DNA from: Escherichia phage AidaStucki_Bas93
Sequence record: PQ850593.1
Direction: 5' to 3' (one strand)
DNA: 64,000 nt
The notes under the pieces are model-generated. The model did no database searches. It was not told the DNA's origin and saw nothing but the letters and a program-made list of their open reading frames with translations. Positions 28,348-32,222 of this stretch are shown one piece after another. Made by a program: the position numbers and the translations under genes. The stretch's first letter is position 1. Each line of letters begins with the position of its first letter.

Positions 28348-28602
28348 TTAGATTAAATCATAATACTGAATAATGTCAGAGAGTTTGAACTCTCGAATCT
28401 CATCTTTCTCTATATCTATCGCTGTCATAATCCAACAAGGTTTGCCACCGTTATGAAAACGGGAGCTAGCAACGGAGGTTCGGAGTGGAATAACGGACCG
28501 GTCAGCAACCTCGCCTCTCCAATTGCGATAGCGAAAGCGAAGCACTTGTTGCGTAGATTTTTGATCATCATTCATTTCCTTTCTTGAATTGTTTTCTTGC
28601 AT
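28348..28602 (-). CDS. small protein with WYL-like pattern
   Basis: 84 aa. The pattern RFRYRNWRGEVADRSVIPL...CWIMTAIDIEKDEIREFKLSDI resembles WYL/SH3-barrel domains. The start is uncertain (28602 or 28575). Confidence 0.35.
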   Translation of the reverse strand: MQENNSRKEMNDDQKSTQQVLRFRYRNWRGEVADRSVIPLRTSVASSRFHNGGKPCWIMTAIDIEKDEIREFKLSDIIQYYDLI

Positions 28603-28969
28603 CGTTTTCCATCTTTGTTTTTAGTTTATGACAAGGGTCTTTACACAGAACCTGAAAACCTTCTTTCTCACACAGAGCACGAGAGATGATTTCATCCCAA
28701 GTTGCTTCATGGTCAAGAGGTACTATAGGCTCTATGTGGTCAATAGCCATATCCTTTACAGGGTGGTCAGAACCACACATGGCACACCTAAAGTGCATTG
28801 CCAGTCTACCTGTCTTTGGATTAATCTTCTGCTCTGTCTTGGCTTCTGCTAGTGCATCGAACATGGGCTTCCACTTTCTAGTCAGAGAACGAATCCCTGA
28901 CTTAATGAAAGAGTTGTAACGAGCTTCAGTCCAAGTTCCACTACAGCGTGTCTTCTCAGACTTCGCCAT
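28568..28969 (-). CDS. HNH endonuclease
   Basis: 133 aa. Carries CAMCGS...AIDHIEPIV...CKDCHKLKT (Cys pairs plus the His-Asn-His core). Confidence 0.75.
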   Translation of the reverse strand: MAKSEKTRCSGTWTEARYNSFIKSGIRSLTRKWKPMFDALAEAKTEQKINPKTGRLAMHFRCAMCGSDHPVKDMAIDHIEPIVPLDHEATWDEIISRALCEKEGFQVLCKDPCHKLKTKMENDARKQFKKGNE

Positions 28970-29135
28970 AATCAGCTTCTTCCCAAACTCGTTTGTTTAC
29001 ACGATGACTCACTTTGCCCTCACGAGGAATACGACCTGTCCTCTGATCAAACAGTTGATGTTTAATCTTTTGATCTTTACGAGATTCACGATTGGAGGAG
29101 TTTTCATCATATGAACGATAATCAAATTTACCCAT
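28956..29135 (-). CDS. small hypothetical protein (59 aa)
   Basis: ATG after aagga. Begins MGKFDYRSYDENSSNRESRKDQK. Overlaps the HNH start by 14 nt. Confidence 0.4.
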   Translation of the reverse strand: MGKFDYRSYDENSSNRESRKDQKIKHQLFDQRTGRIPREGKVSHRVNKRVWEEADYGEV

Positions 29136-29148
29136 TATAATATCCTTA

Positions 29149-29967
29149 TTACCAAGATTTATCTAACCATGTCCAGTCGAACAGGTCTTCCGGAGCCTGA
29201 CCAACAAAGAGAAGCCGAGCATTCTCAAGCATTTTCTCTTCATCTTCAGTATCGAACTTCTTATAATATTCCATTCGTACTATATGATACATGGTCCACT
29301 TATCTGTAACCCCAGCCAACAACTTAGCTGCTGCTTTCTTCCCTATCCCTTGACGTCGAAGCTGGAGCTTACCGCCCCACATCACTTCTTTACGTTCACC
29401 ACATCCGGGAATATTATCTGTTCCATCTCCAATCAGCATCTGATAGAAGAAATTTTGCCATGAAACTAAATCAGATACGTAGTGAGGAGGAACCTCTTTT
29501 TGTCTTTCTCCACAAGCCCAACGGTAATGCCATCCGGGAGTTATTAACAAATCTTTGTCTCTAGTACAGATGATAGTGTTCTTATCTCTACGTTGCCTTT
29601 CAGCTAGTGCATCATCAGCCTCTCTCCCAAATACATCTATGTATTCATACTTACCTTTAATATAATCACCGACATTTTGCCAGTGAAAAGGTCTTTCTCC
29701 GGGAGGTCTGTTTGCTTTGTAGTCTTGCTGCTTAGCAACATCGAAACGGAAGTTACCGCCTTCGCTGAAGTAGAACACAACCTTACTGCAACCTGAGCGA
29801 GCAATGATAGTATCTATCTTGTACTGAAGTCGTTCAATCATGAAATTATAATCAACTGGAACACGTCCTGTGTCAAGAAAGGGATGCTCCTGAGTAAGGG
29901 CACCCACTTCATATCGAAGAACATCTCCGTCCACAATCGCTACTTCTGGATAAGATATATCACTCAT
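29149..29967 (-). CDS. 5'-3' exonuclease / flap endonuclease (FEN, RNase H-like)
   Basis: 272 aa from the ATG after ggagg. PIN-like N-terminus (VAIVDGDVLRY) and H3TH motif (GIGKKAAAKLL). Confidence 0.8.
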   Translation of the reverse strand: MSDISYPEVAIVDGDVLRYEVGALTQEHPFLDTGRVPVDYNFMIERLQYKIDTIIARSGCSKVVFYFSEGGNFRFDVAKQQDYKANRPPGERPFHWQNVGDYIKGKYEYIDVFGREADDALAERQRRDKNTIICTRDKDLLITPGWHYRWACGERQKEVPPHYVSDLVSWQNFFYQMLIGDGTDNIPGCGERKEVMWGGKLQLRRQGIGKKAAAKLLAGVTDKWTMYHIVRMEYYKKFDTEDEEKMLENARLLFVGQAPEDLFDWTWLDKSW

Positions 29968-30403
29968 GATTTCCTCCATGGTGTCGGATAAGGTGACAAT
30001 TAGCACAGAGCATGACACATTTATCTAACTCTGCCTTAAGTTTAGGCCAGTACCGATAGTATGAAGGGTTTTCGTCTTTTGTTTGTTCATCCAGATGATG
30101 GAACTGCATAACACAAGGTGGGTATTCTTTTTTACAATCTAAGCAAACACCTCCCATGTATTCTATTGCTTTTATCTTAAGATCTCTATTTGCCTTATTA
30201 GCAACCTCTTGCCGTCTTTTTCTATTGGCAGCATACCAAGCTCTTTTCTTTTCTGCGGTACAAATCCTACAAGTTCCAGTAACACCCTTAGTACACATCT
30301 TATTGGGGTGATATTCTGTTATGGCTTTTTCAACCCCACAAACGTTACACACCTTAGTATCAGCATCCACTATAGCTACTTCAGGGAGCTTAACGTCTTC
30401 CAT
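29960..30403 (-). CDS. HNH endonuclease whose first 15 aa copy the FEN N-terminus
   Basis: 147 aa. Multiple CxxC pairs and CANCHLIRHH. The N-terminus MEDVKLPEVAIVDAD parallels the FEN MSDISYPEVAIVDGD. Confidence 0.75.
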   Translation of the reverse strand: MEDVKLPEVAIVDADTKVCNVCGVEKAITEYHPNKMCTKGVTGTCRICTAEKKRAWYAANRKRRQEVANKANRDLKIKAIEYMGGVCLDCKKEYPPCVMQFHHLDEQTKDENPSYYRYWPKLKAELDKCVMLCANCHLIRHHGGNHE

Positions 30404-30404
30404 A

Positions 30405-30928
30405 TTATTCTCCTAATAACTTACGAATTTCAATACGGAAATTATCATACTCTTCAGGGTATTCAAACCCACATTCAAGAAGAGCATAGTGAACAACCTT
30501 CAGCAAATCCTGAACCTTATTCTTATCTTTGTGTCGATAAGCATATTTGATCATGTTGGTTTGTTGAAAGTTCAACTGAGGGTTTGCATGATAAAACTCG
30601 ATAGGTTGAATCTTCTTGCTATCAGGGTTATAGTGGGAACCTCCCACCATAGAAACTAATGCTGGGTTACCTTGAGATGCCATTTCTAACTTCTCCGTGT
30701 GGTCATGTGAGTAGTCTACTGGAGAGGTTTTGTTACCAGTAATTTTAGGTAAAATCGCTCTAACTGTTTCTATGTACTTACCGCCATCAACATTAATTTG
30801 AAACTCCACAAGTTCATCCTGTAGTTCATACCCTGATAAGCTTGATAGTTCCTCTAGCTCGTCTCTGAGGAAGTTTGTGTGCTTTCTTTGGGTTGCAAGC
30901 GCTTTCTTTAAAAGAACTATTTCTTCAC

Positions 30929-30932
<4 letters not shown>
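30405..30932 (-). CDS. DUF3310-like protein
   Basis: 175 aa. The C-terminal half (GGSHY...IQPIEF...NMIKYAYRHKDKNKVQDLLKVVHYALL) fits the DUF3310 pattern as I recall it. Confidence 0.55.

Positions 30933-32222
<1,290 letters not shown>

Follow-up and report, generated by a model that had tools for sequence, protein, structure and literature searches.

An HNH endonuclease cassette in the flap endonuclease gene of a phiEco32-like phage appears to carry a replacement gene start

The HNH and FEN genes of Escherichia phage AidaStucki_Bas93

The genes studied here are two overlapping genes of Escherichia phage AidaStucki_Bas93, a phiEco32-like Kuravirus: one encodes an HNH endonuclease, the other a flap endonuclease (FEN, a 5'-3' exonuclease), and both open with nearly the same peptide. 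They lie in a stretch of 64,000 nucleotides (nt) of the record PQ850593.1, which was analysed as a whole and is called the window below. All coordinates are those of the window, and the HNH gene, the FEN gene and the neighbouring genes discussed are all on the (-) strand. The features of the locus, including its open reading frames (ORFs), are:

30405..30938 (-): upstream resident gene, DUF3310 (Pfam DUF3310; phrog_26149), outside the cassette
30410..30413 (-): GGAG, the ribosome-binding site of the resident FEN, taken over by the HNH ORF (read from the sequence; the same upstream sequence precedes FEN in the HNH-less phage 172-1)
30359..30403 (-): copy 1, resident FEN codons 1-15 (MEDVKLPEVAIVDAD), in-frame leader of the HNH ORF (44/44 nt match to 172-1)
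29923..30358 (-): 436-nt mobile cassette, in which the HNH body with an internal ribosome-binding site is followed by a replacement for FEN codons 1-15 (comparison with phage ECBP2)
29960..30403 (-): complete HNH endonuclease ORF, 147 amino acids (aa); residues 1-15 are the FEN-derived leader, residues 16-147 the zinc-finger and HNH core
29973..29977 (-): GGAGG ribosome-binding site for the FEN restart, within HNH Gly-Gly codons near the C-terminus, 5 nt upstream of the FEN ATG
29923..29967 (-): copy 2, cassette-borne replacement FEN codons 1-15 (MSDISYPEVAIVDGD) (45/45 nt match to ECBP2 copy 2)
29149..29967 (-): FEN ORF, 272 aa, a chimera with codons 1-15 from the cassette and resident Kuravirus sequence from codon 17 onward

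The upstream DUF3310 gene is labelled as a dNMP or nucleotide kinase in the annotation of relatives. The HNH ORF begins with MEDVKLPEVAIVDAD-TKVCNVCG and the FEN ORF with MSDISYPEVAIVDGD-VLRYEVG, the sequence at the junction of copy 2 being GTGGACGGAGATGTTCTTCGATAT. FEN is an unbroken ORF of 272 codons, as long as in HNH-less relatives. The two ORFs overlap by 8 nt (ATGAGTGA), and the HNH stop (29960-29962) falls on FEN codons 2-3. A previous sequence-only reading of this locus had placed the HNH stop over both the ribosome-binding site and the ATG of FEN; the overlap with the FEN start region holds, but the ribosome-binding site is left clear of it, inside the HNH Gly-Gly codons. The same GGAGG-N5-ATG arrangement is found at the HNH/FEN junction in other loci of the window type.

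The HNH protein matches the phrog_2255 'HNH endonuclease' family (E-value 1e-39) and, more weakly, endonuclease VII-type families. Its catalytic-type residues (F101-H102-H103, N135, H137 and H141) and its CxxC pairs (C19/C22, C45/C48, C87/C90 and C133/C136) are fully or almost fully conserved in 40 homologues; by sequence, the conserved His/Asn motif and the CxxC zinc ligands place it in the HNH family. Its AlphaFold2 model has a mean predicted local distance difference test score (pLDDT) of 90.4, and leader residues 1-10 are modelled as coil (mean pLDDT 70). The FEN protein matches phrog_107 (E-value 3e-64). A profile of 14 FEN family members matches the Taq polymerase 5' nuclease (1bgx, 1taq; E-value 1e-10) and aligns D13 of the window protein with D18 of Taq, which we take to be one of the metal-binding residues of that nuclease. 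The single FEN sequence has no match among the PDB sequences and reaches 26.6 bits in Pfam, below the 34.3 cut-off. Residues D13, D15, E116, D118 and D119 are invariant in the family and D137, D139, D181 and D184 nearly so, so that the protein combines homology to 5' nuclease domains with conserved acidic metal ligands. We presume that this PIN-like 5' nuclease resembles T7 gene 6.

Over their 45 nt each, copy 1 and copy 2 are identical at 27/45 nt and 10/15 aa, and their longest common exact run is 8 nt. The duplication of the N-terminus that had been noticed from the sequence (estimated then at about 22 of 30 nt) is real: the two copies share 21/27 nt in the core coding for PEVAIVDxD, and 5 of the 6 differences lie at third codon positions. 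A degenerate pattern of this 27-nt core occurs exactly twice in the window and in 0 of 100 shuffles. Among 9453 pairs drawn from the other ORFs of the window, the best N-terminal match is 6/14 residues, to be compared with 9/14 for the HNH/FEN pair. The middle codon of the D-x-D motif is unlike between the copies in all 6 B-type loci where both copies reach it, with changes from copy 1 to copy 2 of Ala to Gly, Ala to Ser and GCT to GCC; in locus L094 the codon switches from AGC to TCG, both serine.

Comparison with HNH-less relatives and with ECBP2

About 100 phiEco32-like phages match the flanks of the locus. The best matches cover 85% of the query and miss the HNH segment, as exemplified by PH444, Paul and 172-1 (92-94% identity). 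In the phage collection searched, ECBP2 (genus Suseptimavirus) is alone in carrying the same HNH gene, which is therefore sporadically present at one locus among close relatives (the window and ECBP2, against about 100 phages without it). In HNH-less relatives, FEN directly follows the upstream kinase-like gene. An alignment proposed along with the sequence-only reading, meant to see whether HNH-less relatives have a single PEVAIVDGD-type site, was run, and they do: a single FEN start, MEDVKLPEVAIVDAD, is present in 172-1, Paul and phiEco32 and runs directly into VLRYEVG (the 5' region of the 172-1/phiEco32 type being GTGGATGCTGACGTTCTTCGATAT). The insertion of the HNH gene some 15 codons into FEN is thus borne out, and the boundary can be set between codons 15 and 16, two codons past the codon aligned to Asp18 of the Taq 5' nuclease.

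Between the end of the upstream gene and HNH codon 15, the latter included, the DNA of the window is identical to the FEN junction of many HNH-less relatives. Since the first 44 nt of the HNH ORF match the resident FEN start of these relatives (44/44 nt identical to that of 172-1), copy 1 is the resident FEN 5' end, and the HNH gene did keep the resident start for itself, as had been proposed. Copy 1 of the window differs from copy 1 of ECBP2 at 13/45 nt. Copy 2 behaves in the opposite manner: it is identical to copy 2 of ECBP2 (45/45 nt), shares 26/45 nt with the resident-type allele of 172-1 and gives no blastn match to the resident allele. Of the two origins first considered for the second copy, brought along or regenerated in place, the former is supported and the latter is not. 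Likewise, it was not the HNH gene that captured a duplicate: the HNH is joined to the 5' end that was already there, and the duplicate came in with the cassette. Segment by segment, the nucleotide comparison is as follows:

Upstream gene: ECBP2, no homologue (a non-homologous gene in that position); 172-1, 88% (88-92% across 172-1 and Paul)
Copy 1: ECBP2, 89% over 27 nt; 172-1, 100%
HNH body: ECBP2, 98.5%; 172-1, absent
Copy 2: ECBP2, 100%; 172-1, no match
FEN body: ECBP2, 76-81%; 172-1, 95-97%

In the alignment, the window sequence is of the resident type as far as codon 14 of copy 1 and of the ECBP2 type between the first HNH-specific codon and codon 15 of copy 2; from FEN codon 17 it is of the resident type once more. 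On either side, the switch point is no more than a few nt away from codon 15, which delimits an inserted unit of 436 nt (29923-30358). In ECBP2, copy 1 (MPDVIYPEVAIVDAD) is identical at 44/45 nt to the FEN start of the HNH-less Suseptimavirus IME267, copy 2 is that of the cassette, and the cassette lies between the native FEN 5' end and the native FEN body. One cassette found in two genera, each time between native halves, is strong sequence evidence for the horizontal movement of a defined unit that would bring its own replacement start. Metagenomic Kuravirus contigs carry either the cassette of the window or a second cassette at the same codon.

The anatomy of the locus, the presence/absence polymorphism, the mosaic boundaries, the same cassette in two genera and the recurrence described below are direct observations. 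Taken together, they make it highly probable that a mobile HNH cassette entered FEN at codons 15/16 with its own replacement start. The locus had been described as a fossil of intron-less homing. No intron was found, but "fossil" seems ill-suited to an HNH ORF that is intact, retains the residues invariant in its family and belongs to a cassette nearly identical in two genera; judging from these sequences, the cassette is active-looking and recently mobile.

Two further observations concern ECBP2 and the phage SU7. Residue 129 of the ECBP2 HNH protein is Tyr where Cys is invariant in all 40 aligned homologues (K-C-V-M-L-C) and where the window has Cys, and the ECBP2 gene may be a damaged copy. 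In the HNH-less phage SU7 (L230, 1201-1245), the FEN start is copy-1-like and Suseptimavirus-native for 36 nt and then continues with GACGGAGAT exactly as in copy 2, which is suggestive, though only suggestive, of a resistant allele or of the scar of a cassette lost by recombination between copy 1 and copy 2.

Recurrence of the architecture

A search with the HNH protein yielded 229 homologues with E-values of 1e-10 or better. Many of these homologues open with M-x-x-L-I-D-(A/G/S)-x before the TK-x-C that begins the core, and others begin at the first Cys itself. Surveys of the IMG/VR and JGI metagenomes with a marine-type HNH alignment yielded few close relatives, most relatives being found in Logan and ENA assemblies. 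For all close homologues with a contig that was read, FEN is the adjoining downstream gene, and the HNH leader resembles the FEN start of its own locus. In a permutation test restricted to the variable residues that precede the conserved core, shuffled partners equalled the own-locus match between leader and FEN in 0/20000 cases. The FEN-fused architecture is found in at least 10 diverged loci (the recurrence loci being PKM.Hi.22.6, BUCT695, L012, L032, L091, L093, L094, L095, L101, L177 and L178). Examples of paired starts are:

P0002 contig: HNH leader MEDITLPTLAMIDAD; FEN start MSDITLPKIATIDGD
P0004 contig: HNH leader ...YDYTLALIDAD; FEN start MEMYDYTVALLDAD
P0008 contig: HNH leader MGLRALIDSD; FEN start MKALIDSD
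L012: HNH leader MKALIDAD; FEN start MKALIDSD
Salmonella phage PKM.Hi.22.6: HNH leader MRILID; FEN start MRILLDAD
Aeromonas phage BUCT695 (degenerate 75-aa HNH): HNH leader VKALIDA; FEN start ...RALLDAD
L032: HNH leader KGKVLVDGS; FEN start RGKILVDGD

The second cassette found at the same codon in other Kuraviruses encodes an HNH protein with 61% (P0006; contigs L096/L097) or 59% (L011) identity to that of the window. Its copy 1 is that of the window in L096 and 93% identical to it in L011, and its copy 2 is different (MSNETPAPPEIAIIDSD). The upstream gene differs among Kuravirus, Suseptimavirus, Grimontviridae and T7-like marine contigs.

Some loci depart from this pattern. In BUCT695 (L004, 2429-2656), the 75-aa HNH remnant lacks the whole middle of the protein and keeps the FEN-like leader and the FEN overlap, which looks like a decaying cassette. 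In L048 (2068-3218) and L061 (2065-3194), an HNH gene that is more distantly related, though of the same broad family, splits FEN just before a V-S-L-D-K-D-L motif and leaves two separate ORFs (about 120 aa and 126-145 aa); these are genes in pieces, with no duplication. An interrupted FEN was also suspected in Pseudomonas phage TC6 from two annotations under one match, but the case turned out to be an ordinary overlap with a neighbouring gene and its FEN is continuous.

Proposed mechanism and alternative explanations

Several scenarios could account for two similar starts around an HNH gene. That the similarity of the N-termini is a chance or compositional effect can be given almost no weight: the segments are indeed short (15 codons), but the core pattern is absent from 100/100 shuffles, the best background N-terminal match is well below the observed one (6/14 against 9/14) and the comparative data account for the origin of each copy. 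The copies are direct repeats that encode nearly the same peptide, as would be expected if the 5' end of FEN had been duplicated in tandem in this lineage and the copies had diverged on the spot, with the HNH gene landing independently between them. Yet copy 1 is identical to the resident allele (44/44) and copy 2 to the cassette of another genus (45/45, against 26/45 to the resident), and the same unit of HNH and copy 2 occurs in two genomic backgrounds, which makes this sequence of events extremely unlikely. One could also imagine that the HNH protein is not selfish and is instead a domesticated partner of FEN, the shared N-terminus serving a common function such as co-regulation or an interaction motif. 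The tight pairing of HNH and FEN across distant phages and their translational overlap speak for such a partnership. Nevertheless, the HNH gene is absent from all but one of the roughly 100 close relatives in the phage collection, the cassette was transferred horizontally with sharp boundaries, BUCT695 holds a degenerate remnant of 75 aa, and the shared peptide is the first strand of the nuclease fold beside the aligned catalytic Asp rather than a surface motif; we thus consider a domesticated partner quite improbable.

Copy 1 might finally be an untranslated relic, with the HNH protein starting at an internal codon and the in-frame fusion being accidental. The free-standing HNH relatives (T2S1, L013, L014, L015, L017 and L022) have no leader and start 1-3 residues before the first Cys, which indicates that the HNH core needs none, and the leader is predicted to be unstructured. 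But the HNH ORF of the window has no ATG before residue 36, which lies past the first CxxC, and the only nearby GTG, codon 18, lacks a properly spaced ribosome-binding site. Moreover, none of the loci of the window type examined (at least 10 diverged loci) has a leader that is out of frame or contains a stop, an improbable outcome if the frame were irrelevant. A relic is consequently very unlikely. The in-frame fusions, the leaderless free-standing relatives, the coil conformation of the leader and the lack of a usable internal start together suggest that the leader is translated and that the HNH gene depends on the FEN start. The leader is not part of the HNH core.

The favored reading, a mobile cassette with its own replacement start, can be cast as the following mechanism. 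The cassette consists of an HNH core without start signals of its own, the last codons of which hold GGAGG, and of an ATG with a re-coded version of FEN codons 1-15. Once it is inserted, translation of the HNH gene would start from the resident FEN ribosome-binding site and ATG, with the 15 codons that open the resident FEN as leader, and FEN, restarted from the GGAGG-N5-ATG of the cassette, would stay full length, its translation presumably coupled to that of the HNH gene. The HNH protein would cut HNH-less FEN alleles close to the boundary of codons 15 and 16, near the D-x-D|V-L codons; both recombination junctions are within a few nt of that point, as synthesis-dependent repair of a break made there would leave them. 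Repair of the break would then copy the cassette into the HNH-less allele, with the donor's copy 1 as upstream homology arm and the FEN body as downstream arm. Since FEN sequence flanks the cassette on both sides, it could be copied into any related HNH-less FEN allele whatever the upstream gene, and since both arms lie in a conserved gene, the HNH family could cross between phage families. The re-coded copy 2 would protect the carrier and hinder deletion by recombination between the repeats; self-immunity through this diverged copy is plausible in view of its sequence.

Some points weigh against this reading or parts of it. Pfam finds no HNH model at its cut-off in the HNH protein, a search of the PDB sequences with the HNH profile gives nothing significant, and the Foldseek matches of the HNH model in the PDB are all weak (E-value >=0.1, the best 0.11). 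Among these weak matches, ranks 1-2 and many other top ones are HNH-type nucleases (the Cas9 HNH domain, Gme HNH nickase, T4 endonuclease VII, Hpy99I and McrA) and the rest are unrelated. Cleavage by the HNH protein, its target site and its homing are things that we infer from sequence comparisons. Copy 2 abuts an intact D|VLRY junction, so self-immunity must rest on 3-4 substitutions. Lastly, the cassette may have entered the Kuraviruses earlier and reached the window by descent, and contigs with P0001 show it in other Kuraviruses.

If the account is right, the element takes the start of its host gene for itself and delivers a re-coded spare start in exchange, which would be a fourth way for a homing endonuclease gene to reside inside an essential gene, beside introns, inteins and gene splitting. 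It would narrow the native target to a short stretch around the D-x-D|V-L codons, making the specificity of the HNH protein directly testable. There are also consequences for annotation: these HNH ORFs have a host-derived leader and FEN 5' ends can be foreign, so that phylogenies and gene calls can be misled.

Comparison with known systems

A literature search found no description of this arrangement in phages. An intron-borne HNH gene was considered and discarded, as an Rfam scan of 28900-30700 at E-values up to 1 gave two irrelevant sub-threshold matches and nothing else. The HNH ORF has its own stop, FEN has its own ribosome-binding site and ATG, and Pfam detects no intein or Hint domain, so that an intein is not supported either. 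Endonucleases fused in frame to an upstream exon and translated from the start of the host gene are familiar from the ORFs of organellar group I introns; in contrast to these, no intron is detectable in the window, and FEN would be restored by re-initiation on the duplicated start rather than by splicing.

By analogy, the gene hybrids of fungal mitochondrial mobile ORFs (mORFs) seem to be the closest known relatives in kind, the window being comparable to a mirror image at the 5' end. On insertion, a mORF brings in a foreign version of the 3' end of the gene that it invades, and the native end is displaced, as in atp6 of Allomyces macrogynus and in atp6, atp9, cox2 and nad3 of Glomus (PMC3630166). 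There too, a mobile endonuclease ORF travels with a foreign, diverged gene end while the gene stays intact, and it is the native copy, not the inserted one, that matches close relatives (PMC3630166). In the window, copy 2 is such a carried foreign gene end and copy 1 the displaced native end that matches relatives. The differences are that the mORFs involve 3' ends in mitochondria and LAGLIDADG or GIY-YIG nucleases, whereas the window involves a 5' end and an HNH nuclease in a bacteriophage, which makes it a mirrored variant and not a member by descent. Furthermore, the native end displaced in the window is no dead remnant, as the HNH gene obtains from it a ribosome-binding site, a start codon and a leader, and the restart of FEN relies on a ribosome-binding site of bacterial type that lies within the endonuclease ORF.

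Among phage systems, T4 MobA, which also sits within a gene with neither intron nor intein but splits it, brings a 50-nt gene 60 bypass element that protects the carrier from cleavage (PMC5009743; bioRxiv 10.1101/2022.08.31.505936). It resembles the window in that an HNH-type homing endonuclease sits in an essential gene of DNA metabolism at a metal-binding site, and in that the cassette has extra sequence that keeps the gene functional and, presumably in the window too, shields the carrier from self-cleavage (PMC5009743; bioRxiv 10.1101/2022.08.31.505936). In the window, however, FEN is unsplit and contains no non-coding gap of the gene 60 type (candidate gaps occur only in distant relatives, see below), the solution being a duplicated, re-coded start. 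MobE of the Aeromonas phage Aeh1 is likewise a free-standing HNH gene within a coding sequence (nrdA), with no intron or intein (PMC10448857; bioRxiv 10.1101/2022.08.31.505936), but nrdA is split, whereas FEN is not divided in two functional peptides: its 15-codon stub is reused by the HNH gene and a full-length FEN is re-created. The intronless homing of the T4 Seg and Mob endonucleases also dispenses with introns and inteins and is presumed to proceed by double-strand-break repair in mixed infections, with co-conversion of the flanks (PMC2988022). Those genes sit between genes and have their own starts, unlike the HNH gene of the window, which is embedded in the target ORF, fused to it in frame and accompanied by a replacement 5' end.

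Short FEN insertions in distant relatives

In 17 distinct contigs with more distant members of the HNH family, the FEN ORF beside the HNH gene is interrupted by inserts of 4-8 nt, located 0-3 codons after the D-x-D motif and usually opening with a stop codon. Their removal restores the canonical D-x-D-(I/V)-L-x-Y-E in every case, and the frame of the FEN body is open as far as it was read or aligned, except in L180, which has a second, compensating 1-nt deletion 21 nt downstream. The inserts are:

TAGAT, TAGGT, TAGTC or TAGCT (5 nt), after GAT: T7-like metagenomic contigs L095 (~2931-2965), L101 (~2937-2970), L239 (2630-2663), L240 (5499-5532), L241 (9707-9740) and L235, L236 and L237 (~10-20 nt after the HNH stop); the form GAT TAG AT ATC is found in L095, L101, L236 and L240
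TGACTA or TGACTT, in frame after a Leu codon: T2S1, L013 and L179; this gives an in-frame Leu-TGA-Leu after D-A-D-(I/V)-L at ~2405-2450 in L007 (T2S1), ~2928-2965 in L013/L102 and ~583-620 in L179 (CTG TGA CTA twice, CTT TGA CTT once)
7 nt, GACAT[TCTTTGA]CCTACG (CTT TGAC CTA): L008, Vibrio phage Phriendly, ~2400-2460, a cultured phage with the HNH gene
8 nt: L014, ~2910-2960
TAGC, after CGA (CGA TAGC TAY): L178 (~1908-1950) and L180 (~1736-1790)
TCAC (GAT TCAC GTC): L177, ~1931-1970
CCCGC, between CGA and a landing CGC (CGA CCCGC TAT, both Arg): L238, ~1938-1990; fits a matched-codon hop

Any production of FEN in these phages would require the ribosomes to hop or frameshift across the insert. 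In several inserts, matched codons flank the stop (GAT-TAG-GAT, CTG-TGA-CTA, CTT-TGA-CTT and CTT-TGAC-CTA), which looks like a signature of ribosomal hopping. At the 5-nt TAG-type loci, removal of the insert gives D-x-D-I-L-L-Y-E, and the FEN body is in the frame of the HNH gene with one TGA in between; a matched-codon hop fits TAGTC, TAGCT and TAGGT imperfectly, the landing codon being G-N-Y. At the Leu-TGA-Leu sites, a hop from the first to the second Leu gives the canonical spacing and readthrough adds two residues; these sites are candidates for natural stop-hops. No natural in-frame stop-hop was known according to a 2016 review (PMC5009743). A simple matched-codon hop does not fit the TAGC inserts of L178 and L180, the TCAC insert of L177 or the 8-nt insert of L014. 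A reassignment of TGA was rejected, as it cannot account for the frameshifting inserts, and no conserved alternative start codon was found for the FEN body in the insert-bearing relatives. It is also possible that FEN was recently broken and is dispensable in these phages.

Phriendly offers a comparison with HNH-less relatives. In BA6 (L232) and KIT05 (L233), the FEN proteins of which are 85% identical to its own, the site is uninterrupted (GAC TGT GAC ATC CTA CGT). The GenBank annotation of Phriendly contains only fragments of the HNH and FEN genes. The CTT TGA C of the Phriendly site is, we assume, also a +1 frameshift motif of the prfB type. If its FEN is decoded, DCDILRYELG would be the product of a 7-nt hop and DCDILDLRYELG that of a +1 frameshift.

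We put forward, tentatively and at somewhat less than even probability, that the HNH family, a large one with the cassette of the window among its members, is specialised on the D-x-D codons of phage FEN genes and has alternative ways of keeping FEN working while spoiling its own target, namely a re-coded start, gene splitting (L048, L061) and inserts of 4-8 nt. If this were true and FEN is still produced despite the inserts, they would act as a short-gap counterpart of the T4 mobA/gene 60 bypass cassette and might include the first in-frame stop-hops known from nature. The wider HNH family may thus offer natural and tractable short translational bypass sites, one of them in a cultured phage (Phriendly).

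Other features of the FEN neighbourhood

A promoter scan found promoter-like sites no commoner than in shuffled sequences, and a terminator scan found five terminator-like sites, none of them informative for the HNH/FEN junction. A second, small and unrelated HNH gene (phrog_3106; 28568-28969, (-) strand) is located two genes downstream of FEN, a position that it also has in those of the retrieved relatives whose annotation includes it. phiEco32 (L002, 2845-3685) has two HNH genes downstream of FEN as well as a longer upstream kinase gene. The FEN neighbourhood is a hotspot for endonuclease genes and indels. A small ORF (28348-28602, (-) strand) that overlaps the 3' end of the downstream HNH gene has a borderline match to the WYL domain (21.2 bits, the cut-off being 21.8 bits).

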